A stretch of DNA of 14,559 nucleotides from the NCBI GenBank assembly GCA_963765895.1, contig CAVXZB010000063.1, positions 1 to 14,559 of the forward strand. Direction: 5' to 3'. The stretch comes from an uncultured Nitrososphaeraceae archaeon (lineage in GTDB: Archaea > Thermoproteota > Nitrososphaeria > Nitrososphaerales > Nitrososphaeraceae). The notes under the pieces are model-generated. The model did no database searches and had not been told where the DNA came from. It was given only the letters and a program-made list of their open reading frames with translations. The position numbers and the translations under genes are program-made. Of this stretch, positions 1 to 14,559 are shown piece after piece; position 1 is the first letter of the stretch; each line of letters opens with the position of its first letter.

Positions 1-357
1 TCGATTTTTCCCTTTAGCATTCGATGTAAATTTATAGCATCTTCTTCTAAGCTCAATTAAATAATCTGATTACATATCACTACGTCAATGTATATAGATT
101 GCTGTCTTTATAAAGACAATAATTTCAGATTAGTTTCGGGTATTTGAAGGGATTTCAATAATCGACCCGTTAATTGATATCTCTGACCTATTTTTAATCT
201 ACATTGCTAATCTCAGCTCGCCGACTTAATAATCCAATTGACTTTGACTTTCGAAGTAAATTATTATTTCTATAAAATGGATTTAATATCCATAAATGTT
301 ATTACGTATAGAACACCGTAAATTGTAAAATAGTAAGAAACTCTTTTAATCTGTATT

Positions 358-488
358 GTGCAGAAATTTGTATACGTGAGTCAGGCCATTGCATGCCCTG
401 TGATAAAGAATTTATAGAAAAGGCAATGGCAAAAAGTCATAAAAGATCAACTGGTCACTAGGTCATAGAAAGAATACTAGAGAAATAA
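358..488 (+). pseudogene. Small C2H2-type zinc-finger protein, disrupted
   Basis: Manual translation from 375 gives RESGHCMPCDKEFIEKAMAKSHKRSTGH*VIERILEK*, i.e. C-x2-C-x12-H-x5-H with the conserved Phe. There is a premature TAG at 459-461 and TAA at 486-488. The probable GTG start at 358 (VQKFVY) is one base out of frame. Confidence 0.6.
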
Positions 489-1609
489 TAGTAGGTTATT
501 TAGATTTTAGTCTATAATAGTAGGATAGAGGGATTACTCCAAAAGACTGTGACAATATAGTTATTAAATAAAAATTGTACGTCTATGTTATAATTGATAT
601 TATTATATGTATCTGTTGCCAGTCACTCTGATACTTAATCTATTAATTTAGTAGTCAAAGATATAATCTCTATATAATTTGTTTATCATGAGATATTATT
701 CAGAGAAATATTTAATTGAAGGAAGAACTGTGATAAAGCCATGAACAGAGATTTAATGGTCTTAAAGAGAAATCCATAAAAGATCCATAAACTGTATTAT
801 TAATATTATTAACTATACTAGAAGGATGGGACGATAATGTGTTACGGCTAATAATTTCTTAGAAAGGAGTAAAAGGAAGAGATTAGAGAAATTAGGTTCC
901 TGATTCCACACTTTATTATGCTAAGATTATATATTACACAACGGCTATATACAGATTTGCCTATAATTCCATCTAGATATAGCAGACCGGATTTACCTAA
1001 CAGTAAATTAGTCTAGAATCGATACGCCACATTGCACAAGTGCGATTTATATAAGAATTCCTCCAATTCTGGCTATGAGTTAAGTTACCGCATTAAACTG
1101 AATCACGGTGGGGTGATGTACAGTTAGTCACAAGATTTCGTTCTAACCGTTGTTTGGCGTAATGTATATTATTACTTAAAATTGGCACTCATCTTGTTTG
1201 TTTGTATGTTTACAGGATTGAACCTATATCAATACGCGGATTGAAATGTCAATTTATAGGGATAATGATAAGAAAATTTTATACTAAAGGAAGTATTTGA
1301 AAATTCGAGCTCCATTGATAAACATTAACACATGGCTACTTCAGGCTAGACTATTTAAATTTAAATACAAAAACAATAGATAATAAAGAATTGAGTCAAA
1401 TGAAGTAGACCCAGCCCTTATTGAAAGAACCTACTATATCAGACAGTCCACAAAACGTGTCGCAGCCAATAAGCATATTCACTCAATACTCTTTCGTGTC
1501 AACTAACAATTTGAAGCAAGACTAGTCTCCAGAATCATGAGACAATCTAACGAAATAAAAAATGATTCATATTCTCTAAAGTAGAATGTCTTGATGATTT
1601 ATCATCAAA

Positions 1610-3021
1610 ATGCAAAAATTTGATTTAATAGTCATAGGTGGGGGCTCCGGATTGGATGTGGCTACTTCTGCGGCTCAACATGGCCTTACAGTAGCTGTTG
1701 TTGAAAGGGAAAGGATGGGCGGAACTTGTCTAAACAGAGGATGTATACCATCCAAGCTTTTGATTCACAGTTCAGACGTCATGGAAACAATTAAACACGC
1801 TGCAAAATTTGGAATAGTGATCAGTGGATATGCAGTAGAATTCCAAAAAATTGTTCAGAGGGTAAATGATTTTACCGACCATGAATCAGAGGAAATTCGA
1901 AATGCATTTGAAGGTATCAAGAATCCCAAGCTTTTCTCTAAAGAGTGTAAGTTCATAGGACCAAAAACAATTAAACTAATTGACAATCCTAACCACGATG
2001 ACAATGAACAAAATATTATAGCTGGAGAAAAAATATTGATTGCAGCCGGCACTAGGCCAAAAATACCAAGTATAGCAGGGCTCGAAGAAACAGATTATAT
2101 AACTAGTGATGAGGCATTGCGTCTTAAACATCAACCTGCCACGCTTACTATCATAGGTGGTGGTTATGTGGCTTGTGAGATGGCCCACTTTTTTGGAGCA
2201 TTGGGAACAAAGATAAATATCATCCAAATAGATGATGTCTTGCTTCCAAATGAAGATGAAGACATATCACAGAATTTTACTAGAGTTTTCTCGAAAAAAT
2301 ATAATGTATTTTTAGGTTATGAAACAGAATACGTATCCAAAATTAATGAGGATGGTAGCAGGAAATTCTTTGTAAATCAAAGAAAAAATCTGAGTCTTTG
2401 GAACTTGTTTCTGATCAGCTGTTGATTGCTGCAGGAAGAATACCAAATTCGGATACTCTTAATCTCGATAAGACTAGTGTTGAAGTTGATGTCAGGGGTA
2501 ACATTAAGACCAATATGTATCTCGAAACTAATATCAATGGAATATTTGCTCTTGGTGATATAGTAGGTCGGTATTTATTCAAACATAGTGCAAATCATGA
2601 AGCAAAATATGCCTATAACAATATTATTCATCATAATAATAAAATTCCTGTAGATTATACCGCAATACCTCATGCAATTTTCACTTCGCCTCAGGTTGCT
2701 GGAGTAGGATTTACAGAGCAAAAACTCAAGAACCAGAATCAAATACAATACGTAAAATCTATTTATCCTTACATTAATACAGCTATGGGAAAAGCAATCG
2801 ATGATCAAGACGGATTCGTAAAATTCCTAGTAGATAAGAAAAGTAGAAAAATCCTTGGGTGCCACATTATTGGAGATCAAGCATCCATCCTAATTCACGA
2901 AGTCTTGGTTGCCATGATGTCTGATGATAAGCATAGTGGTACTATCGATAGTATAGTGAGGACCATTCACATTCATCCAGCACTATCCGAAGTAGTTGTA
3001 AGGGCTGCAGCAGAATTTTGA
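1610..3021 (+). pseudogene. lpdA: Class I pyridine nucleotide-disulfide oxidoreductase (dihydrolipoamide dehydrogenase / mycothione reductase-like), split by one frameshift
   Basis: ORF 1610-2425 has FAD-binding DLIVIGGGSG, the redox disulfide GGTCLNRGCIPSK and NAD(P)-binding IIGGGYVACE. ORF 2398-3021 has LLIAAGRIPN, IFALGD and the catalytic HIHPALSE. Adding one A to the A6 run at 2383-2388 joins them (..NQRKKSESLELVSDQ..) into about 470 aa. Confidence 0.9.
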
Positions 3022-3309
3022 ACTAAATACTATGCCTATTCCTCAAATATATTTTCTTAGCTACATCAGTCAATAAGGCATAAATGAAATGCCACGCGTC
3101 ATACTATTTGATTTCGGATAGATATCTAATTTTTATATATCGTATCTTTCTGTGATTTGCTGGGTATTTTATCCATTTTTGGCTATTTAGTAATATCATC
3201 TTTGTCGAGATATCGAACACCAAAATTTACCAATTACTGATCTAAAAGAAGGTAGATTAGCAAGCCGCTTATTACATACTTTACTACATAAAAGTTCGGT
3301 GTAAATGTT

Positions 3310-3892
3310 ATGGATGGAAAGAAAGATGACAAGAATAGCGTAGATGAGCTGATAAAGATTATAATGCGATACTCAGAGAGAGCACTTTACTCACGACAGG
3401 GTAAACACGTTCCAGTGTCTGGACTCTTTGAGACACACCTAACCGTAAGTAATCTGCAGCGATCTATTGCATTCTATAGAGATATCATGGGCCTTCAACT
3501 AGCATTTGAAGTACTTATACACGGTTGACATTCTCCTGGATAGGTGATCATTCCTATGATCCTTCTAGACACTCTATGCTGGGATTATGGTCAGTTGGTA
3601 CTATACCTCTAGGTCTTAATCTGCACGTTGCATTTGAAATGGCAGCAATTAAAGACTTTTTAGATGCACCAAAACGACTTAAAGACCAAGGGATGGTACC
3701 TATCTTTCTTTGCTAAAGAGACAATTGAACCTAGTGTAATCGGATGGATGCCTGAAACTTGCAATTTACTTCCGAGACCCTGATGATAATCTCATGGAGT
3801 ATCTGACGATGCTAGATGAAAAGGAGCGGAAGCCGGACCTAGGAATTGTTACTTGGTCTGAATGGACTTGCAACAATAAACAAATCATATAG
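3310..3892 (+). pseudogene. VOC (glyoxalase/bleomycin resistance) family protein, multiple frameshifts
   Basis: Pieces in successive frames: GLFETHLTVSNLQRSIAFYRDIMGLQLA, then SMLGLW..LHVAF, then FFAKETIEPSVIGWMP, then YFRDPDDNLMEYLTML..PDLGIVTWSEW..* (TAG 3890-3892). These carry the typical N- and C-terminal VOC motifs. Confidence 0.85.
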
Positions 3893-4819
3893 GACATATT
3901 CAAACCACCATACGTACAGGAACTAGGCAGCAGTGTGTAACCCATGTAGGTAATCAATAATGTAACCTATCTCAGTAGTACAACAACTGGTTAATATAAA
4001 TAACTAATCTCCAGAAGTAGGCATACAATATACTAGCATCGAATCAATATGTTTCTTATGACTAGTCACAGAGCATCTTCAGGTTAATGCAGATTTAATA
4101 TCACTAATATGGCAACATCATTATTCTACCCTTCTAGAAACATATTTGTATGATATAAGATAATTCATAAGATTGTAAGCGACTATGGAATAATTACATT
4201 TTCGATGCATTGGACAGACGAAGAATATCAACTAAACCTGCAGCAGCAATCAATCGATTCACATACAGAATTGAATCTTACTGATGATGGTATCACATCG
4301 TAGGACATCATTGAACTATTTCTATATTGTAGTAGCGATGCCTCAACCAGATCATGATCAAAAAGTGTTTTGTTCCTATGTGAACTAGATTAGAACCTTC
4401 TTCTAGAAAGGATAAATATATTGTTATTATAAAACTGAATAGAGAATGAGATCGTTGGTTTAGATGCTCATGAATATTGTGGCGTTTACGTTTTTAATAG
4501 TGTTATCGCTTATATTGACTACAACAATAGGTCATGAAACGTTAGCATTCAAGTCAACCTCCGCATCACACAGTGATGGTATAACACGAGGTATTAACGA
4601 TGTCTTTTGTGACATTAATCTTTGTCAAGGACACGGATATTACCCTTCATGTCCATCAGGACACACGAAACTATACTGCAGTGGATATACACAAGGATAT
4701 AACAAGGAATGGGGTCGGCAGACAGGAAATGGGAATAGCAACTCGAAGGTTCGATCTCAAAATAATACCGGTACACAACCAACAGCGCCCCCAACTTATC
4801 AAACAAATAACTTATCAAC

Positions 4820-5475
4820 TAACGTTTCTGCATTGGTAGATGAAGGTAATGCTCTTTTATCTCAAGGTAGGTATTCGCAAGTGGTAGAATATCTATGATA
4901 GGGCGTTAGTAATAGATCCAAATTATGAGGATGCACTATACAGTCGGTAATACTCTTAACATCTTTTAGGCAACTATACACAGAGCTACATTTTACTTCG
5001 ACAAAGCATTATCTATAGATCCAAATGATAGGGATACATTAGATGGTAAGGGTGCTGCTTTTGGTGGATTAGGCAATTATACAGAAGCCTATACAATATT
5101 ATGATAGGGCGTTAGTAATAGATCCAAATGACGGACAAGCGCTTGATAATAAGGGTATGCTCTTGCTACATGGGCAATCATACGCAGGCAATATCATATT
5201 TTGATAAAGCCTTAGCAATAGATCCAACTAATAAAAGAGCCCTTAATAATATGGGTGTAAGTCTTGACAGCTACTTAGGTAACTACTTGCAAGTGATACA
5301 ATCCTTTGACAAGGCTCTAAAATAGATCTAAACTTTGAAGAAGCACTAACTAACAAAGGTAACGCTCTAATAATCTCGCAATTATACAGAAGCTATACAA
5401 TATTACAATAAGGCCCTAGTTATAGATCCAAGTCACAGTAGTGCACTAAATGGAAAACAAAATGCTATTTCTAAG
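4820..5475 (+). repeat. Tetratricopeptide repeat array (~6 units, ~102 bp period) inside the pseudogene
   Basis: Recurring AL.NKG..L..LGNYT.AI.Y(F/Y)D(K/R)AL.IDP. An exact 30-bp DNA repeat, tatgatagggcgttagtaatagatccaaat, occurs at 4894-4923 and 5100-5129. Confidence 0.9.
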
Positions 5476-5496
5476 TTGATAGCATCTGCGCCCACA

Positions 5497-6740
5497 TCTG
5501 GATATAGTCATGGATGCTCTGATGCACAAATATCCAACCCAGCAGATGGTAATTAATCAAACTGGAAAAGGTCCAAACTTACATAGCAAGCCGATTATGC
5601 AAGCATATCGCAAAGGTCTTGATGCATGTTCCGGCTATTCAAATGGAGGTAGTAGTTTTGATATTGTAAATCAACTACAGCAAAGTACTGGACACCAACT
5701 AAAGTAACTTCGACTAACATGACCGGTCTTCATATTATATTCGATGGGACGGATAGCACATTTAAGATAGGAAATAAAGACCTTAATGCGTGTGTAGATA
5801 TGGTCAGTGATAACGATACAGAGGTATCGTTAGTATGCCATCCTATAACAAATATTCCCCAAGGTAAGAATGGCACACTAGATGTAGGATATTTCATAGT
5901 ACCAAGCAAACGACACACTATACGCATGTGGCAAAGTCCAATTCAATAAGATAGAAGTTTGCCAAGAATTTGATGGTTTAGAAAAACGATTAGACTTGAA
6001 TACAACGGTTTATAATTATGTGAATACGGCGATGGGATGTCTAAAACATCAAAAGATAGACACGCCGGCTTTGGATAAATGTATTCTCGAAAACGATAAT
6101 CCGTCAGAAGAATCAATCTATGCGGCGTCTGTAATACATCTGGTTATAATCATGGGTGTTCAGATGCTCAAATCTCTAATCCTGCACACCGGTACATAAA
6201 TCAACCAGAAAAGAGTCCAGCTTCCATAGTAAGACATTTATGCAGACATATAACAAAGGCTATAACGCCTGCTTAAGTAATTCAAATAACCAATCGAAAA
6301 GTGGCAAGAGTTTTGATAACGAAACTCTACAGATACAAAGCTACTGGACACCAAATAATGTAACCGGCAACTATCATATCATATTAGAAGGTGTAGATAG
6401 CACATTAAAAGTTGGAAATAATGGATTAAAGGCTTGTATTAACGGCGGAAATGACCATCTCATATTATGCCACCCTATAACGAATATTCCTCAAGGTAAA
6501 AGTAATACAGTGGATGCAGGGTATTTTTGGACTGGGCCCAAAGTAATCAGACATCGATATTGGGCTGTGCCTATGCTAAATTTGATGGAATAGGAGTCTG
6601 TATTGGATTTGAGGGACAAACAAATGCATTTCGATTTGCCTACACTAACATACGATGATGTTTATACTGCAATAGGATGTCTAAAATATCATAGGGCAGG
6701 CACGCCAGCTTTAAGTGAGTGCACACTTGATAATGATTAA
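5497..6740 (+). repeat. Diverged tandem duplication, ~642 bp period (unit 1 ~5497-6105, unit 2 ~6139-6740)
   Basis: Paired segments: SGYSHGCSDAQISNPA / SGYNHGCSDAQISNPA; HIIFDGTDSTFKIGN / HIILEGVDSTLKVGN; CHPITNIPQGK in both; TAMGCLKHQKIDTPALDKCILEND / TAIGCLKYHRAGTPALSECTLDND. Confidence 0.9.
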
Positions 6741-6925
6741 ACTAGGATGTAAGCCCATCAAGGATGAGTAGAAAGTCATCAAGCCTCTAAAGAATACTTA
6801 TCTACAGAATACATCATTTGACGCGCCTCGTGTTTCAAGAATTATAATCAATTCGAATCCAGGGAGCCTTAGATATCAATAGAATCGGCTATTATCTCCT
6901 AAAATCTGAATGAACTATTTCATAG

Positions 6926-7708
6926 ATGAATCGGGCTTACTATGCCATATTGGTTCTGTCCATATTGGCAATTATCGCCGCATCAGTGTATTTAATTAAT
7001 AGAAAATCTCCACCACAGCCCTTTTCAAATCAGCTAGGCTTTACTCAAATCTATACTCCAAAGCCAGGTGGTAGGGTGTTTACTGCAATGCAGATTTCAG
7101 GAGATAATTGTGTATTAGATGGGATTAGATTCAACCTTGCTAACAAACATACTCTTGTAGATAGAGAATCAACTTGGATCTTTACTCTAAACAATAATCC
7201 CGCACCTTGTACTGATAAACCGTGGTGGGCTCCTAAGATCGGCTCACATGGTGATGATGATCAAGCTGCAGGACTGTATGAAGCATCTGTTCCATACACT
7301 GGTGGATTTCACTTGATGCGCACAGAAGGACCATTTGAACAATACCATCAGTGTAGAGGTTATCAATATGCGAATGTTCCACCAATGCCACAAGGAAAAC
7401 CAATTGGTATTAAGACTGCTCAGTGGAGAATTCCAAATGGAGTTCATGTAGAATTTTGGTATGACTTTACTGGTGGTGGAAAAGGACCTTGGATAAAATA
7501 TGCAAGCTTAGACGACATACTGCCAGGATACTGCGATGGGGGTTCTATAACTGGACCAATAGGCGTGAATGGTAGACTAATAGGTCCTGCACCAGCTCAA
7601 GATACTATGAGACTGAATGGAGCCGATGCCACTTATATTGGAGGTTCGATTGTGGAGTTGCTTTCAGGTCAAACTCCTAAAGGGGTCGTAGGTTCTAGTT
7701 CTCAGTAA
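6926..7708 (+). CDS. Membrane-anchored or secreted hypothetical protein, beta-rich (possible jelly-roll, carbohydrate-interacting fold)
   Basis: Intact 260-aa ORF with an N-terminal TM helix (YYAILVLSILAIIAASVYLI) and a Gly/Trp/Cys-rich ectodomain. It shares motif order with the 13660 ORF. The fold is an inference. Confidence 0.8.
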   Translation: MNRAYYAILVLSILAIIAASVYLINRKSPPQPFSNQLGFTQIYTPKPGGRVFTAMQISGDNCVLDGIRFNLANKHTLVDRESTWIFTLNNNPAPCTDKPWWAPKIGSHGDDDQAAGLYEASVPYTGGFHLMRTEGPFEQYHQCRGYQYANVPPMPQGKPIGIKTAQWRIPNGVHVEFWYDFTGGGKGPWIKYASLDDILPGYCDGGSITGPIGVNGRLIGPAPAQDTMRLNGADATYIGGSIVELLSGQTPKGVVGSSSQ

Positions 7709-7912
7709 AGTTTATCTTAGATGCGGCACTTACTTGTGGATCACTATCGTGTAAAACATATCATAACTGACTTAACACAATATCACATGCATAATTAATT
7801 TTTTCCCCAAATTGAGGCTACTAAAAAATGCAATGGCTATAATAATTTGGCATGCCTCATCATATACATAATTGTCTACCTTGAGTCTATGTCTAGTATG
7901 CAGTATTTTGAT

Positions 7913-8279
7913 AATATTTATAATCTGGCACACCACATAACGTATTATAACTTATGTCCGGGATGATTAATCTGAATGAGTTAAAAAATCTGAAATGTTA
8001 GACTTATTGCATATTGACTGAATTAATACGTTGATTCGTCATTGACTAGTTGCTACCATTCATAGATATCATCAATTGGGGTAATCAGTCATGATAGTTT
8101 ACCTATGAATCATATCAGTTACGTTACGATTAAGTTTGGGGCAATTTTAATAGCTCTGATTTATGTGCATCAGAATCTTATACCCTGATGTCTATGGATT
8201 CCAGATGAATGTTCTTTACTTCTGGATGCAATATATAGTAATAGTAATCCTGTTTGATAGCAATTATTGGATAAAGTGA
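7913..8279. repeat. Degenerate dispersed repeat, copy A (candidate mobile-element end)
   Basis: Collinear blocks shared with 12947-13344: aatatttataatYtggcRcRccRca; gtatta; gactgaattaa; atagatatca; cagtcMtga; aattttaataRctctgatttatg; ggatgca; tagtaatagtaatcctg. Confidence 0.8.
8130..8279 (-). pseudogene. 3' remnant of a gene with a His-rich, Zn-finger-like tail (copy A)
   Basis: Minus-strand translation SLYPIIAIKQDYYYYILHPEVKNIHLESIDIRV*DSDAHKSELLKLPQT* is homologous to 13192-13344. Confidence 0.65.
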
Positions 8280-9052
8280 AAAAAGCAAGAGACGAGACAA
8301 AGAGATAGACTAAACCTAGCAATTATAGCGAACAATCATTATGCTGGATTTGGTCCTGGAACTGCTAACACATATAGGAAAATGTTGGTAAGAGGATGGT
8401 AAAAATATGGTAACGGGATCGCCGATCACCACAGAGAACGGCAATACCATTACCATATCACTTGTCTTTGAAGTACCAAATGGAGAGCATCCAGTGTCTC
8501 CACCTTTTATGAATGTGGAGTGTTATATAGGTAGTATATGTACAGTGTAATGCAGTGCAACATACTAGCAACATAACAAAATAGTTTACCTAGAATCAAC
8601 CTGACCAAAAAATATAATTGAAGTGGCCGTGAAGGATGTTAGGTTCAGGAGTAATAATAGACAGTTTAGAGAGTTCAAGGATTATTCTTCTAAGTTAGTG
8701 CTCCCGTTGTATTGTAGTGTCCTGGGTAATGCGTTAGTGTCCTGAATTACCTTGTTGTTGCTACCTCTGCTGCCTGTCGCTGGTAGTTGCCGTCCATCAT
8801 TGCTTTTTTACTCTACTTATTTCTACTACGAACAACGCTTCCACCAACCCACAAAAACCGGGGTTTGTAGTTCACTCTTAATGTCCTTGAGACACCTCGT
8901 ATTCCGGCAAGGCAAAAGATGACCAGCTAAATCTTTGAATCGTCTCTTGTCTTTGTTTCCATTAATATCGCGTGACCTTTGCCATTTACCTACTCTGCCA
9001 TCCAAAATATGAAAAATAGATTCATACTTATAAGACTAGACTAGGTGCATGG

Positions 9053-10110
9053 TCATGATTCAAATATTAAGTTAAACGGTGTCTGGGTAGCCCGACGAAA
9101 CTTTGAAAACCCTGCCGATTTTACAGTTTGTGCTATTCGTTCTTCACCTGCCTGCGCTCCCAGTGCAGGTCCATCTTCGTTTAAAAAACCAGGGACACTT
9201 ACAATGGATGATACTGAGTAGAATACTCTTCCAAGCGGGTTTAAATTGTCTTCCACTCTATCATTGGCAAAAGGCTCAACTAACATCAATGTGCCATTCT
9301 TTTTCTTCAATGTCTGTAATGCATGTCATTACTGCCGCTGGATCACCCATGTCATGGAAACAATCAAAGAACGCAACTAAATCATAATCGTCTCCCGGGT
9401 AGTAAGTGGCTTTTTGCAACTTCAAAAGTTATGTTCTCAAGCCTTCTTTTTCTGCTTGTTTCCTAGCCCATTCAATTGACGGTTTGTGAGAATCAAACCC
9501 TATAACTTTTGTATTAGGGTATGCTTTTGTAATCAGGATTGTCGATACACCATGACTACATCCTATGTCTGCTACTTTTGACATTGTTCATTCTTGAGTA
9601 TGTGTTCAATACCTTCTAATGCGGGGATCCAACTGGTTGTCTAAGATTAGCAACATAGTTTGGCTTGAAGAATCTCTCTGTCCCTTCAAATAATTAATGA
9701 TGATGGTCTCCCCAACCAAGACCCTTTCCATTCTTAAATACCTCAATAATTTTTTCCACATCTTTAAATAGACTTACTAGGGACTGATAGAAACCCGCTA
9801 CATAGGCCAGGCTATTCTCGTCAGTGAGAGCAAGAGCATGCTCGTCTGGGAGCATGTATGTGCCATTTGTAGAATTGTATGTAACAAAACCTCCGGCTTT
9901 TGACCGGCAAGCCATTCTTTTATTATTCGTGGATGTGTCCTTGTCTTGTTTGCCAATTCTTCCGGTGTTAACTCACCTGCTCCTGCCATTGCCTTGAACA
10001 ATCTAAGTCTGTCTCCAACAAAAGTAATTAATGCGCCTTCAACTGCTTCCCCATTCATTCACTGCTTTACCAATAAATTCTTGTAACTTTGCCCTATCTA
10101 TTGATCCATT
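9053..10110 (-). pseudogene. Class I SAM-dependent methyltransferase with N-terminal winged helix (Rv2258c-like), multiple frameshifts and stops
   Basis: Pieces: IDRAKLQEFIGKAVNEWG; VGDRLRLFKAMAGAGELTPEELA..HPRIIKEWLA; GGFVTY..GLGWGDHH*; motif I KVADIGCSHGVST; YDLVAFFDCFHDMGDP; LMLVEPFANDRVEDNLNP..ALGAQAGE..AGFSKFRRATQTPFNLIFES*. The true start is not resolved. Confidence 0.9.
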
Positions 10111-10343
10111 TTTATATTTGAAAATATGAACTGAGGCACTACATTACTTCGGCTTAACTATGTTAGATAACGTATAATAGATAGGTGTGTTGAGACTATT
10201 ACTCGATTCGTTCGAACAGGATTATTCATTACCACAATCATAGTCAAGTCCAGCAATTCTTCTGGCTGGATTTCATATGGTCGTTATGTTTATTAAAAGT
10301 TCATGTGAAATGCTAGTTCGAGCTAACTGCTTCATTCAATGGA

Positions 10344-10580
10344 TTAAAATGTGGCGCTTCGATAATATTCTGCAACCGCAAATATATGCTTGCACTTGGC
10401 ATTGTGGCGAGCATAATCTGGACATGAACAAATCCATCTATTGAGTTGCAGTGACGGTATAAGTATTGTCACTAGATGTCGATCTGACACTATAATTAGA
10501 ATCGCTTATAAGTGTAATGGCGCCACTTGTCTGGGCTATAGTTTGCCTTGCTCTTCGCGGTTAACAAGTCGTCTAGGCAT
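10344..10580 (-). pseudogene. SWIM zinc-finger protein fragment (possibly the N-terminus of a transposase-like gene), frameshifted
   Basis: MPRRLVNREEQGK / IAQTSGAITLISDSNYSVRSTSSDNTYTVTATQ / RWICSCPDYARHNAKCKHIFAVAEY..*. This contains the SWIM C-x-C-xn-C-x-H signature. Two indels keep it off the ORF track. Confidence 0.8.
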
Positions 10581-10812
10581 CTTTAGCCATCGCGCACATC
10601 TTGATGACAGTATGTAGTTTTTTCATCTATTGCTTCATCAAATCTTTTGTTCAGGATACTCTTGATGCTCTCTTCCGATTCTAGTTCCTTCGGTTTTAGA
10701 TCCTTAGTGTATATGCGTAACTAGGCATTTTCACCATCTTCCAATGCAACTTACTTCTTACTGGACATCTGTGTCAGCCTCTAATTGTGGTATCTCTTAT
10801 CGTATGCGTTCC

Positions 10813-10842
10813 GTAGAGAACGACAAATTGTCGTTCTCCTAC
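10813..10842. other. Near-perfect inverted repeat
   Basis: gagaacgacaa-a-ttgtcgttctc (10816-10838) has perfect 11-bp arms around a 1-nt centre. It extends by gta/tac with one bulge. Confidence 0.85.
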
Positions 10843-11221
10843 ATTTTTTCTGCATGTGGGATTTGCGAATGCCTTTGCATTTTGCCTTAATTTAATAGTC
10901 TCGAAGAACAAGCAAGACTTCAGTGTCTTCCATAGGTGGCGCAATGGCTTAGTATTAAGATTTTTTCCGACATAATTAAATCGGAATTCATAGAATCCCG
11001 TTCAATCTGAAGCAGATACAAAAATGAGTTCACATGCCTATCTAAGATTTAATCAGCATATTGTAAAGTATATTGATCTAATGCCAATAAAATAAGTTAT
11101 AGTTAAGATGAATGCAGAATATACTTTAATCATATTTACTCTTTTGATATCATAACAGGATTTTACAAATTACAAATATGATCTACTATAACATATCAAT
11201 ATCATCAAGCAAATAATTATT

Positions 11222-11449
11222 ATGAAAAGACAACAAGATAAAACCTATGAAAGGCTTTGGCTATTTGTAATAGCCACTGCGATTCTAGCAGTTAGTAGTA
11301 TTGTTATAATCGGAGCAGAGCCAAGTGCTAGCGCGCACACAGATCAACCATTAGCATTGGTACAGCGAGCCTGTGTTGTATACCAAACTTATCCTGCAAC
11401 GACTGACTGTTCGATGACAATAGGCTCAAGTACATTCAAAGTAGTCTAA
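11222..11449 (+). CDS. Small exported hypothetical protein (possibly truncated)
   Basis: 75 aa with a basic N-terminus, a hydrophobic stretch (LWLFVIATAILAVSSIVIIGA), an ASA cleavage-like site and two Cys. Confidence 0.55.
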   Translation: MKRQQDKTYERLWLFVIATAILAVSSIVIIGAEPSASAHTDQPLALVQRACVVYQTYPATTDCSMTIGSSTFKVV

Positions 11450-11699
11450 CAAAGTTTGCATACATTTGAGCGCTTAGCCAGGATTATAAAAGGAGGATCT
11501 GTAATAATGAAGATAGACCACATACGTTTCAGGTGATACTGCTATTGTAGAGATGACTTCTACTTCCGTTGCTCTGAATGGACGACCATATGCTCAAAGA
11601 TTCTGCTGTATAACACGGTTTGTTGATGGTTTGATTGTCGAGGTTCGAGCTTACTTGGATTCAGTGCTTGTTCAACAACTGATCGATGAGAATGAGTGA
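11450..11699 (+). pseudogene. NTF2/SnoaL-like (ketosteroid isomerase-like) protein, 5'-truncated and frameshifted
   Basis: HTFERLARIIKGGSVIMKIDHI / YVSGDTAIVEMTSTSVALNGRPYAQRFCCITRFVDGLIVEVRAYLDSVLVQQLIDENE* (TGA 11697-11699). The GD..vvE..NG.py....f..G.I..vr.Y.D pattern is typical of SnoaL-like C-terminal halves. Confidence 0.8.
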
Positions 11700-12035
11700 G
11701 TGAGTTATCACTTAGGAATTGCTAAACATGTACTAAGGTTAATATGAAGACTAATTGATGAAAATGATTTCATCAGAAAAGAGGAATAGAAAGGAGAATG
11801 AGTCTGAAAGTAATGATCTTCTGGGACAGTCAGCAACAAGCGGCTACGACTCAACTAGAACAAATTCACGCATATCCATTTCGGAAATTATATACTGCCT
11901 GGATATAACCAATGTCCTAATAAACAACTCATATTAGGTAGTGCAAAATATGCAAGTTTGGTCTCATTTACCTGATAATGGTAGAATCACTATCTTACTT
12001 AAGTACTATAATGTGTAGATGAGTAGTAATACTCA

Positions 12036-12890
12036 ATGGCTTCTTCCTCTTCATCCAATCAAAAGGTTGCCGTTGTTACGGGTAGCTCAACTGGGATAGG
12101 ATATGAAACATCACTAATCTTGGCAAGGAATGGTTTTCTTACTTATGCGACAATGAGGAATCTTAACAAAAGTGAGAGCATAGAATCGATCACTACGAAA
12201 GAAAACTTGCCTATTCATATTAAACAGCTTGATGTTACAGATGATACGTCAGTCAAAAATGCAGTAGAAGCAATCTCGTCTGAGACAGGACGTATAGACA
12301 TCTTAGTAAATAACGCAGGATATGGACTTAACGGTGCCTTCGAGGATCTTGCAATGGATGAGATAAAAGCACAATATGAAACTAATGTGTTTGGATTGAT
12401 AAGAACAACTCAAGCAGTCCTTCCGATTATGAGAAGACAAAAATCAGGAACCATTATAAATATTAGCTCTGGCGCTGGAAGATTTGGTTTTCCTGGAAGC
12501 TCGGCTTATGTTAGCACAAAATTTGCAGTTGAAGGACTAAGCGAATCTATGTCATATGAATTAGAGCCATTTGGTATAAAAGTGGTTTTAGTGGAACCAG
12601 GAGTTATTAAAACGAACTTTGTAGACGGTATGGTCATTGCAAGAAAATCTCAAGATCCAAAATCTCCATATTCTCAAATAGTCCAGAAAATGGTTACTGG
12701 CTTGGAAGAAATGATGAACAATGGATCTTCTCCTGATCTTGTAGCAAAGGTAGTGCTTAACGCTGCTACAAATGAAAATCCTAGCCTCAGGTATTTAGCT
12801 GGAAATGATGTAGAACAATGGTTGGGGAGTAAAAGGAACATGTCTGATGAAGAGTTTTATAAAATGATGAAGCAAAATCTGATGATGTAG
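12036..12890 (+). CDS. Classical short-chain dehydrogenase/reductase, probably NADP(H)-dependent
   Basis: Intact 284 aa with TGSSTGIG, NNAG, a catalytic Ser (NISS) and YVSTK, VEPG, and a basic Arg after beta-2 (ATMRN). Confidence 0.95.
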   Translation: MASSSSSNQKVAVVTGSSTGIGYETSLILARNGFLTYATMRNLNKSESIESITTKENLPIHIKQLDVTDDTSVKNAVEAISSETGRIDILVNNAGYGLNGAFEDLAMDEIKAQYETNVFGLIRTTQAVLPIMRRQKSGTIINISSGAGRFGFPGSSAYVSTKFAVEGLSESMSYELEPFGIKVVLVEPGVIKTNFVDGMVIARKSQDPKSPYSQIVQKMVTGLEEMMNNGSSPDLVAKVVLNAATNENPSLRYLAGNDVEQWLGSKRNMSDEEFYKMMKQNLMM

Positions 12891-12946
12891 AGCATTGTCC
12901 AAGTATACGTAGATATTACTCCATACATGAGATGCCTCATTCTAGA

Positions 12947-13344
12947 AATATTTATAATTTGGCGCGCCGCACATCTGTATTAGAAGATATTTTTCCGATA
13001 TACATATAGGACATGTCAAAATCCCGACATTGTCCGATGTGTTAAAACTTTGGCTATAGACTGAATTAAAATGCTGGTCCATATCAGATAACCGCTACTA
13101 TCTATAGATATCAATTTCTAGAGTCGTCAATTCTGTTGAATAACTAGCATCCAGTCCTGAAGATTCACTTATCCCATGGAATCGCTAGTCATTAGTAAGC
13201 TTGGAATTTTAATAACTCTGATTTATGCTTGTCAGGATCTTTGTATTTACATGATGCTCTACAGACTAGATGTACGTTCTGTACGTCAGGATGCAGCCTG
13301 TAGTAATAGTAATCCTGCTTTAAAGCAATACTAGGACAGCATGG
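12947..13344. repeat. Degenerate dispersed repeat, copy B (candidate mobile-element end)
   Basis: Same collinear blocks and same orientation as 7913-8279, with an extra ~30 bp near 13115-13150. Confidence 0.8.
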
Positions 13345-13560
13345 ACTCTGGTCTAAACCGTGTTCTGGAAGTGGTGTATATGGCGCGTTCGGATCATCGT
13401 AGAAAAAATCGGTTACAGAGCTGATTTTGGCTGTCTCGTATCCTGTATCTACTGATTAAACGCCATCTAACGGGGAACATGAGCTTGTGTGCGCGTCCGC
13501 TTCCCAGCCAGATTTTCCATTAGTAATCCTAGGGTTTTGAACGTGAATTTCGTCAGAATG
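13192..13560 (-). pseudogene. 3' remnant of a gene with a His/Cys Zn-finger-like tail (copy B, longer)
   Basis: ..DGV*SVDTG..FFYDDPNAPYTPLPEHGLDQSPCCPSIALKQDYYYYRLHPDVQNVHL-(alternative frame SVEHH)-CKYKDPDKHKSELLKFQAY*. It contains an internal stop and compensating indels. Confidence 0.65.
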
Positions 13561-13659
13561 AGGAATGCATAGGCAATATTCCATTATTATCACGATGCAT
13601 GTTACTATATTTGGATTTGTCTATGACAAACTCCAAATTGACAAACTTGGTTTCTTGGT

Positions 13660-14559
13660 TTAGGGGAGAGTATACGGGTTCATAATCACTATAGATGGAG
13701 GAGAGTAATTACTTTCATTCGAGACGTTAGCGGAAGTTATTGCTTGTGTAGTCGCAGGCCCAGATACTGGAGGTTGAATCTCCCTAACGCTGAAAAGTTT
13801 TACATCCATATTGTCTATGTTATCCCATCTGAAGTGAGTAAGTGGACCGCCCCATGAGATGATTGTTTTGTCAGTACCACCACAATTCGGATGACCACCA
13901 CCCCAATTGTTTCCCGTATCTACAAATTCTATTGATTTATGCCAATTATTGCCAGGTGTACTAGTATTATTTGTACCATCATCAATCCATTGCTCTAATT
14001 TTACCGTCCCATCTGCACGGGTAAAGAAAATGGCTTTCAGTCCAATCCATCGTCCATCTAATTTCTTGGTTACACCAGCTTTCTCAGGATCGTTTGTGGA
14101 ATAGCCTGCTGTGTGTTCAAGTTCTTTTTCAAATTTACTTCGTCCAGTTTCATACAGGTTAGAGTGGTATGCTGTTCCTTCACACGATTTACTTGAAGTA
14201 TGTACTCCTCCACGTGCTAATAATTCTATGTGTGCCACTCCATTTTTGGTCGAACTGGTAAAACTATTGACTTTGAAATACCCTGTCATCTCCACATTCT
14301 TCCAGTCGCCTGGCGATTGCATATATCCTTGCTGTATCATTGTCTTTTGATTTGTTGTTTTAATTTGGCTAGGATTATATCCAGATGATGTGAAAACCGC
14401 ATATCTTACTTGAGTTGAAGTCACCTTAAAGGATCCATCTGGATTTTTAGTCATACTTGGAGGATTTGTTTGCTTATCTTGATTTGGATTCTGCATATCC
14501 ATGAACCATTGCTCCCCTCCTGATTTCGTAGGATAAAGCTCCTTTATGCCAAATTTGTC
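13660..14559 (-). CDS. Beta-rich hypothetical protein, probably extracellular (possible carbohydrate-interacting jelly-roll); 5' end lies outside the window
   Basis: The frame stays open upstream of the listed Met to the window edge (DKFGIKELYPTKSGGEQWF-MDMQNP). Motifs include WKNVEMTGY, RGGVH..CEGTAY, KFEKE, WIGLKAI, VKLEQWID, WGGP..FRWDN and SVREI, followed by a Ser/Thr/Pro tail. Confidence 0.85.
   Translation of the reverse strand, partial: DKFGIKELYPTKSGGEQWFMDMQNPNQDKQTNPPSMTKNPDGSFKVTSTQVRYAVFTSSGYNPSQIKTTNQKTMIQQGYMQSPGDWKNVEMTGYFKVNSFTSSTKNGVAHIELLARGGVHTSSKSCEGTAYHSNLYETGRSKFEKELEHTAGYSTNDPEKAGVTKKLDGRWIGLKAIFFTRADGTVKLEQWIDDGTNNTSTPGNNWHKSIEFVDTGNNWGGGHPNCGGTDKTIISWGGPLTHFRWDNIDNMDVKLFSVREIQPPVSGPATTQAITSANVSNESNYSPPSIVIMNPYTLP

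Follow-up and report, generated by a model that had tools for sequence, protein, structure and literature searches.

Here we analysed a stretch of 14,559 nucleotides (the window) from an uncultured Nitrososphaeraceae archaeon, which is the entire contig C63 of an assembly of 4.9 Mb in 88 contigs with 36.8% GC, and in particular a short motif with the core TGGCRYGCC that recurs in it and that an earlier reading of the letters alone (the original prediction) had taken for the target or scar of a site-specific recombinase or transposase shuffling accessory gene modules. Near the right-hand end of the window a cargo gene coding for a short-chain dehydrogenase (SDR) runs up to a non-coding repeat unit of about 200 bp, the far side of which is met by the 3'-end remnant of a helicase-like replication gene on the opposite strand, and a second, more diverged unit with a shorter remnant of the same gene end lies further to the left (Table 1). 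The motif is securely identified as the core of a non-coding junction unit that belongs to integrated plasmid-like elements and occurs throughout the genus in high copy number; the units sit at the joints between such elements, now decayed. Because the host genome (G000) carries an archaeal 16S rRNA gene and archaeal amoA, and because exact matches to the motif core in a collection of species-representative genomes were found only in Nitrososphaeraceae or Nitrososphaerales metagenome-assembled genomes (MAGs), the host is a soil-type ammonia-oxidising archaeon.

Table 1. Features of the window that belong to the repeat unit or lie beside it
Feature	Position	Strand	Evidence and remarks
Full repeat unit, A-type	12905..13140	+	nhmmer 218.7 bits, model positions 2-240; weight-matrix score 33.3 at 12953-12975
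Core of the 12905 unit	about 12944-12986	+	agaaatatttataat-ttggcgcgcc-gcacatctgtattagaag; aligned with other copies
Second, more diverged unit	7879..8097	+	nhmmer 133.0 bits, model positions 10-239; weight-matrix score 22.5 at 7919-7941
Core of the 7879 unit	about 7908-7950	+	TGGCACACC replaces TGGCGCGCC
B-type motif copy, aataatTTGGCATGCCtcatcat	7841..7863	+	weight-matrix score 20.8; 78 nt upstream of the 7919 core
B-like relic, catcatTTGACGCGCCtcgtgtt	6812..6834	+	weight-matrix score 18.9; no unit around it by nhmmer
Helicase-like replication gene, 3'-end remnant	13195..13590	-	converges on the unit; in-frame stop at 13456-13458; translation
Shorter remnant of the helicase-like gene end	8142..8273	-	E = 4.4e-11, 59% identity, query residues 40-84; one internal TAA
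SDR cargo gene	12036..12890	+	PF00106, E = 1.2e-53; stops 15 nt short of the unit
260-aa ORF between direct motif copies 6812 and 7841	6926..7708	+	ORF list

Eleven copies of the motif had been listed in the window, six as good copies and five as weaker, core-only hits, and the good ones had been said to lie between genes or at a gene end. A search for ATAATYTGGCRYGCCDCAT with at most three mismatches returned four matches, all on the plus strand (6813, 7842, 7920 and 12954), against 0.04 expected from shuffled versions of the window, and none of 200 shuffles reached four; in the whole genome the 14-nt sequence TAATYTGGCRYGCC with at most one mismatch has 44 matches as compared with one for the reversed control. 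A 23-nt weight matrix trained on 19 unique sites, all outside the window, scored the same four sites (12953, 7919, 7841 and 6812; Table 1) above every one of 60 random window-sized sequences, whose best scores had a mean of 10.2, a 95th percentile of 14.4 and a maximum of 17.1. These four sites, as read from the sequence and the list of open reading frames (ORFs), all lie in non-coding DNA at gene ends; the motif is far above chance, and the position between genes was borne out. The other seven sites are at chance level by the weight matrix: two of the good copies, at 1015-1032 (-2.3) and on the minus strand at 10349-10366 (-2.6), and all five weaker ones, at 3080 (8.3), 7721 minus (1.2), 10131 minus (0.9), 10932 (-5.7) and 12931 (-3.6). 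With the 7721 site at chance level, the gene at 6926 is not bracketed by inverted copies, as had been proposed, but stands between the direct copies 6812 (+) and 7841 (+); its product matched no Pfam family and blastn found no second copy of it in the genome. Inverted TTATAAT...ATTATAA arms around the core, also described before, occur in some copies only, others reading ATTAGAA. The minus-strand site at 10349-10366 falls inside a separate repeat family (window 10287-10759) that has at least nine further copies in the genome at 71-81% identity.

When all TGGCRYGCC sites were listed with their flanks, many turned out to share a much longer similarity, and the motif is accordingly not a free-standing site of ~19 bp but the centre of a ~48-bp core inside a non-coding unit of ~200 bp, which we defined from aligned A-type copies and 58 near-full copies. 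The core, approximately ATGTTTATAATYTGGCRYGCCRCAYATCTGTAYTAGAA, consists of a TATA-like box, a GGCRYGCC palindrome and CACATCTGTATTAGAA. The unit as a whole runs from about GTCTATAC through the TATA-like box, the palindrome, CACATCTGTATTAGAAG, TTTTCCGATATAAT, AATCCGAcATTGTCCGATGTGTTAA and ACTGAATTA to its end, TGCTACTATCTATAGATATC; conservation is highest in the core and the information content is zero past model position 213. At E <= 1e-3 a hidden Markov model of the unit (nhmmer) hit the genome 111 times; 58 of the hits are near full length, and two lie in the window. The genome holds 61 GGCGCGCC sites (about 6 would be expected from 36.8% GC by our own arithmetic), and 27 of them are in or beside units. 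Among 85 core-spanning units, 14 have a second upstream site, which in 12 cases is a B-type copy of the motif (consensus ATTATT-TGGCGCGCC-TCATGATAGA) 80-115 nt upstream of the core. Most copies are uniform in size, with 183-203 bp between their end anchors; in the consensus, as we read it, a weak inverted match links the two ends (TCTATAsATAG, 11 of 16 positions), and short direct repeats are present, namely three TCCGAYRT, three ACATCTG and two TGGCGCGCC. Contig C18 shows a local micro-expansion at about 5830-5890, where five or more tandem copies of the right-end motif CTACTATCTATAG stand just before the end of a unit. All six other species of the genus have the unit, and a search of 34 genomes from other genera of the family and order did not find it in any; 51 metagenome contigs contain it, and a viral contig collection gave no match to the core pattern.

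Folding of 51 non-redundant units with RNA.alifold produced no consensus pairs on either strand. Folded as DNA, the window unit was no better than its shuffles (z = -0.40); folded as RNA, its right part reached z = -2.45 by means of a hairpin that, judged by eye, is broken in the other copies. We therefore rejected a structured RNA or DNA as the basis of the unit, and the lack of a conserved structure means that conservation acts at the level of the double-stranded sequence, which points to protein binding. An Rfam scan of the window gave no match of note, its sole hit being sR3 (17.8 bits, E = 0.81).

The genes that flank the unit fall into recurrent kinds. To the right of the core lie the convergent 3' ends of replication genes, which are either helicase-like or carry a PriX domain, and to its left the 3' ends of a tyrosine recombinase gene or of cargo genes. 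The helicase-like tail (...QDYYYYRLHPDV...KHKSELLKF), found on the minus strand to the right of the window units, adjoins 13 of the 65 units examined. An 87-aa query from it (13195-13455) matched 20 places in the genome, one of them a 511-aa open frame on contig C75 with the P-loop GEQGSAKST. No Pfam, PHROG or NCBIfam family and no relative in the PDB was found for this protein; we place it among the primase-polymerase (PrimPol) type because its longer relatives, which measure 900-970 aa and include one from a Nitrososphaeraceae MAG, mostly carry the Prim-Pol domain PF09250. Replication proteins of the PrimPol type are typical of archaeal plasmids and integrated elements (PMC6563490). Two full-length relatives, frames of 1401 and 1132 aa in genome G001, belong to other element families, have no unit nearby and were discarded. 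In the second kind of right-hand module the ORF adjoining the unit is again convergent and carries a PriX primase domain.

Such a position, directly past the stop codon of the helicase-like gene, could be that of the replication origin of the integrated plasmid-like elements, situated just 3' of the replication gene as in plasmid pRN1, where the 166 bp downstream of orf904 are essential and have been proposed as the origin (PMC4234260). The TCCGAYRT, ACATCTG and TGGCGCGCC repeats of the consensus would then act as initiator-binding iterons, and the PrimPol fusions among the long relatives of the gene would fit as well. We nevertheless judge an origin to be decidedly improbable: there is no conserved stem-loop, and the fold of the window copy as DNA does not stand out from its shuffles; the same core is found beside two unrelated replication genes, whereas an origin should co-vary with its initiator; the unit hits (111) far outnumber the helicase-tail places (only 20); and the 90 left flanks described below suit a junction better than an internal origin.

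When unit loci were compared in pairs, most starts of homology fell at model positions 15-50 and the ends at 210-224. In 156 pairs the similarity extends over 150 nt or more of left flank and then ceases, and in 68 of these it does so at model positions 80-120, a number that counts pairs and not independent events. Downstream of one 5' module (box, palindrome, CACATCTGTAyTAGAA) at least six continuations, unrelated to one another, take over at about model positions 83, 94 or 108-111. Clustering the flanks of 182 units from the host genome, one relative and metagenomes yielded 90 left classes and 40 right classes in 105 combinations, with one four-gamete square; the integrase-side left class (L0) is paired with four kinds of right flank (in 5, 1, 10 and 1 units) and the helicase-side right class with at least six left classes. 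The right flank of the minus-strand unit C84:491358 is 93-98% identical in G003, in G004 and in eleven metagenome contigs, and it is preceded by three different left flanks: in G000 the upstream region of an SDR gene, in G003 an unrelated sequence, and in G004 as well as the metagenome contigs the integrase tail. One left flank gives way to another at model position ~34, or, in G003, inside the GC core. In the window itself, 12040-12898 is covered by contigs of four runs, three of RNA libraries and one of DNA, and contigs from other soils (runs X18 and X1) diverge after 12898, 7 nt before the unit. The motif thus marks switches of homology between copies and between strains, which is the link to breakpoints that the original prediction had put forward.

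The units are moreover ordered with respect to one another. Neighbouring units 0.3-10 kb apart have the same orientation in 29 of 33 pairs and the opposite one in four, and arrays of the same orientation also occur in genome G005 and in metagenome contigs, with accessory genes between the sites. The 58 segments between cores measure 505-6521 bp, many being shorter than 4 kb. Besides the genes already named, the neighbours of the units include SDR and SnoaL proteins, a luciferase-like monooxygenase, an NDH2-type oxidoreductase, a major facilitator superfamily transporter, a response regulator, a histidine kinase, patatin, hydrolases, a P-type ATPase, a solute-binding protein and a DDE transposase. 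This arrangement bears on whether the ~200-bp unit could be a mobile repeat of the non-autonomous kind, multiplying by its own transposition after the manner of a miniature inverted-repeat transposable element. The high copy number, the uniform size and the weakly inverted ends would be in keeping with it, and we still regard it as very unlikely, given that no target-site duplications were seen, that the flanks belong to recurring families and not to random insertion contexts, that the orientation bias of 29 to 4 would not be expected under transposition, and that we found no transposase with matching ends, the abundant ~950-bp DDE insertion sequence of this genome being unrelated to the unit in sequence. 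That insertion sequence, a representative of which encodes a DDE_Tnp_1 transposase domain, was found at 40 other places in the genome (38 at 95-100% identity and two at 86-87%), for example at C84:489934-490882, ~450 nt to the right of the C84:491358 core, and also on C55, C24, C22, C41 and other contigs.

The window was said to lack a recombinase, and a tyrosine recombinase or transposase was to be sought beside the motif. Elsewhere in the genome and in metagenomes the motif does lie ~100-150 nt past the 3' end of a tyrosine recombinase gene. Matches to PF00589 are located directly upstream of units at C60:3882-4133 and C38:159630-159758, and on contig L113 the ORF to the left of the core aligns at E = 2e-4 with a 390-aa integrase over its HxxR...GH...Y region. 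This integrase (L118:3149-4318), the one full integrase near a unit, matches PF00589 itself; its best NCBIfam match is XerA_Arch ('tyrosine recombinase/integron integrase'), at 66.2 bits as compared with a cut-off of 220, and the NCBIfam scan matched no other integron-integrase model. On C60 the B-type site overlaps the final codons and the stop of the integrase-tail ORF, as read from the sequences. The left class with the integrase tail is present at 17 of the 182 units. Within the tail of the integrase gene a 77-nt stretch (for instance L066:2264-2340, C60:3414-3491, C38:159070-159147 and C32:6667-6747) is 80-86% conserved at many loci in all members of the genus, and exceeds its surroundings in conservation.

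The composition of the core also suggests a different function, that of a promoter with an operator, which the original prediction had allowed for as a regulator site and in which a B recognition element and TATA box (AGAAAATGTTTATAAT) would be followed, just past the TATA box, by a palindromic repressor site (TGGCRYGCCA). Such a promoter would be used twice, in the B and in the A copy, and would drive a non-coding or antisense transcript over the 3' flank of the replication gene. By eye, the core has a TATA-like box with an A-rich element upstream, and AGAAAATGTTTATAAT resembles AAATTTTATATAT, a sequence located ~38 nt ahead of the amoA start codon ATG in this genome; A and B copies alike consist of an AT-rich box, the palindrome and YCAT, and varied sequences after one conserved 5' module are what one promoter placed before several transcripts would look like. 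With regard to transcription, the contigs of the RNA libraries leave most of the unit beyond 12898 uncovered, apart from two short pieces, and are uninformative. One RNA-library contig has a C48-like core near its end, which could be taken in favour of a promoter, with the limits that the library may hold DNA and that the contig shows neither start nor strand. Against a promoter, translations and aligned copies reveal no conserved ORF or start codon downstream of the core, and the 51 non-redundant copies share no consensus RNA structure on either strand. The orientation of the neighbouring genes has a weak convergent trend (left, 31 plus and 20 minus; right, counting the nearest ORF of at least 120 aa, 26 facing the unit and 19 facing away), the named right-hand neighbours are convergent ends of replication genes, and neither the adjacency of an integrase nor the orientation bias is predicted. 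We therefore consider a promoter and operator unlikely, and at the same time as an explanation to be taken seriously.

Taking these results together, we prefer, tentatively and with slightly less than even confidence, a reading in which integrase-borne elements have accumulated by re-using one site, with the core as their attachment (att) core; the step from a junction unit to an integrase substrate is one that we infer. In such a scenario the tyrosine integrase of the elements would recombine at the core. An incoming circular element would carry the same core as the resident one, its integration would re-create full cores on both sides, and chains of elements would in this way grow in one orientation. 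Later decay of the replication and integrase genes would leave cargo genes separated by cores, and the GGCRYGCC palindrome with its AT-rich flank, shared by A and B copies, would be the part that is bound by protein. We favour att-site re-use because it alone predicts the adjacency of the integrase, the mosaic on both sides of the ~48-bp core, the arrays in direct orientation and the fact that cores outnumber replication and integrase genes. The motif is non-random and part of a repeat family (44 matches against one, and 111 hits). The flanks are mosaic, one right flank being joined to three left flanks that switch at the core, a tyrosine recombinase lies beside the site in a subset of units, and two kinds of replication gene abut the unit. 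Archaeal arrays that result from site re-use by tyrosine-recombinase elements have been described (PMC6563490). An att site derived from a tRNA gene was rejected, none of the 23 tRNAs called by aragorn containing the core.

Several observations weigh against att-site re-use. The same mosaic would be expected if homologous recombination acted on any conserved patch, and the core resembles an archaeal promoter when compared by eye with the region upstream of amoA. Breakpoints to the right of the core are scattered over the three continuation points given above, and others nearby lie off any core, examples being 11457/11458 and 13539 in the window and, in G001, a point 195 nt to the left of the C84 core. 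The arrays are stable: 79 segment pairs exceed 80% in mutual coverage, all of them proved to be orthologous or duplicated arrays, and the order of the three segments at C48:36781-41861 is kept at 86-96% identity in L098, L136, L142 and L143, contigs that hold two or three of these segments. Flank searches in the six other species returned mosaic fragments, an insertion sequence swamping one of the searches, and no complete two-core element with a matching empty site; the C84:491358 locus is a possible empty site, and its left flank breaks off elsewhere in G001. Neither an excision product nor a circular junction was found, none of the 56 core-holding public contigs (5 from other genomes and 51 metagenomic) having terminal overlaps. 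Finally, the integrase-side left class accounts for only 17 of the 182 units. The original interpretation, that of recombinase targets through which modules are shuffled, is partly supported: a tyrosine recombinase gene lies beside the motif at some loci and homology switches at it, and no array was seen to hold its cassettes in another order. A further reading, which we hold to be improbable, is that soil Nitrososphaeraceae of this genus have an integron-like gene capture of their own kind, in which a XerA-related tyrosine recombinase would act on a double-stranded core of ~48 bp, made up of the TATA-like box and the GGCRYGCC palindrome, instead of a folded attC and would string plasmid-borne accessory genes into long arrays of the same orientation.

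The state of the assembly affects how the genes of the window can be read. In the host genome amoA (C24:168102-168652) is spread across three reading frames, each piece being without internal stops, so that the assembly contains indel or frameshift errors and the apparently broken genes of the window need not be real pseudogenes. Frameshifts that are possibly artefacts affect a pyridine-nucleotide oxidoreductase (1610-3021), a glyoxalase (3310-3900) and a methyltransferase (about 9050-10060). A long gene-like region at 4464-6700 is broken into many frames; it includes periodic repeats of ~100 nt (five copies at 4880-5460, resembling tetratricopeptide repeats by translation) and an internal duplication (5686-5793 and 6342-6437). 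Positions 1-3395 of the window are ~96% identical to C60:8049-11467, positions 13612-14559 are ~96% identical to C62:3092-4039, and positions 11458-13539 match two places on C52 at 92-96% identity; recent segmental duplicates are probably the reason why this region was assembled into short contigs. Contig C48 starts with a full bacterial 16S rRNA gene (C48:134-1646; 1603.7 bits with the bacterial model) and also bears many copies of the archaeal repeat unit, which makes it likely that this contig is a chimeric join or a binning problem. A tRNA with a CUA anticodon, labelled Pyl by aragorn, was called at C78:61936-62028; this may be an erroneous prediction or, alternatively, a suppressor-like tRNA.

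Soil ammonia-oxidising archaea are key nitrifiers, and the way in which they gain accessory genes is poorly known. In the genus analysed here a single conserved junction site recurs in over 100 copies and organises islands that hold redox enzymes, transporters, sensor kinases and hydrolases. If the core is a recombination target, both the mechanism and the sequence by which these islands are built would be named, and the core would serve as a simple marker for them in metagenomes. Should it be a promoter with an operator or an origin instead, this family of archaeal plasmid-like elements would still gain its first defined conserved cis element. Were the integron-like capture true, it could, with more than 100 sites per genome, be a main route by which these ammonia oxidisers come to have unusually large genomes of 4-5 Mb. 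A literature search confined to titles and the openings of abstracts found no paper on the motif, the att-site tables of thaumarchaeal elements (PMC6563490), which may bear on novelty, being outside its scope.

The pdif sites to which the motif had been likened are known from Acinetobacter plasmids, where XerC/XerD sites with an 11-6-11 layout flank modules in inverted orientation. As in that system, accessory modules are here bounded by short sites of a recombinase type; unlike it, neighbouring sites are direct in 29 of 33 pairs, and on our own reading no arm-spacer-arm layout is visible in the consensus. The motif had also been likened to integrons. In common with integrons, including those described from archaea (PMC9668308), sites of one orientation lie between mostly accessory genes at a spacing of 0.5-6.5 kb, and a tyrosine recombinase is nearby in some unit loci. 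In contrast to them, the unit lacks an attC-like folded palindrome, the integrase resembles XerA only at a distance (66 bits, where the cut-off is 220), and the segments hold remnants of replication genes and several genes in both orientations, with no reshuffling seen. By its defining features the unit is thus not an integron, there being no folded attC and no clear IntI-type integrase. The origin of pRN1 (PMC4234260) is comparable to our unit, a conserved non-coding region that takes the corresponding position, directly 3' of a gene whose long relatives are fusions of PrimPol and superfamily-3 helicase, at 13 of 65 units. It differs in that our unit has no conserved stem-loop of ~100 nt, has a core that is common to elements with different replication genes, and far exceeds the replication genes in number of copies.

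The nearest known system is the re-use of att sites by integrative plasmids. In archaea, Thaumarchaeota among them, arrays are formed by tyrosine-recombinase elements that re-use one integration site, and the known integrated elements of this phylum have short att sites (median 17 bp for thaumarchaeal ones), mostly in tRNA genes (PMC6563490). In the features given there, the arrays analysed here are alike in having a tyrosine recombinase gene beside the site, a core repeated in direct orientation, plasmid-like elements with genes of the PrimPol-helicase type and cargo between the repeats, and old copies that have decayed. Unlike those arrays, no complete element with an empty-site control was found among ours, our site lies outside tRNA genes, its core is ~48 bp long against the median of 17 bp, and more than 100 copies are present per genome. 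Att-site re-use by integrative plasmids is thus the closest counterpart of the Nitrososphaeraceae unit, which departs from it in the type of site, the length of the core and the scale.

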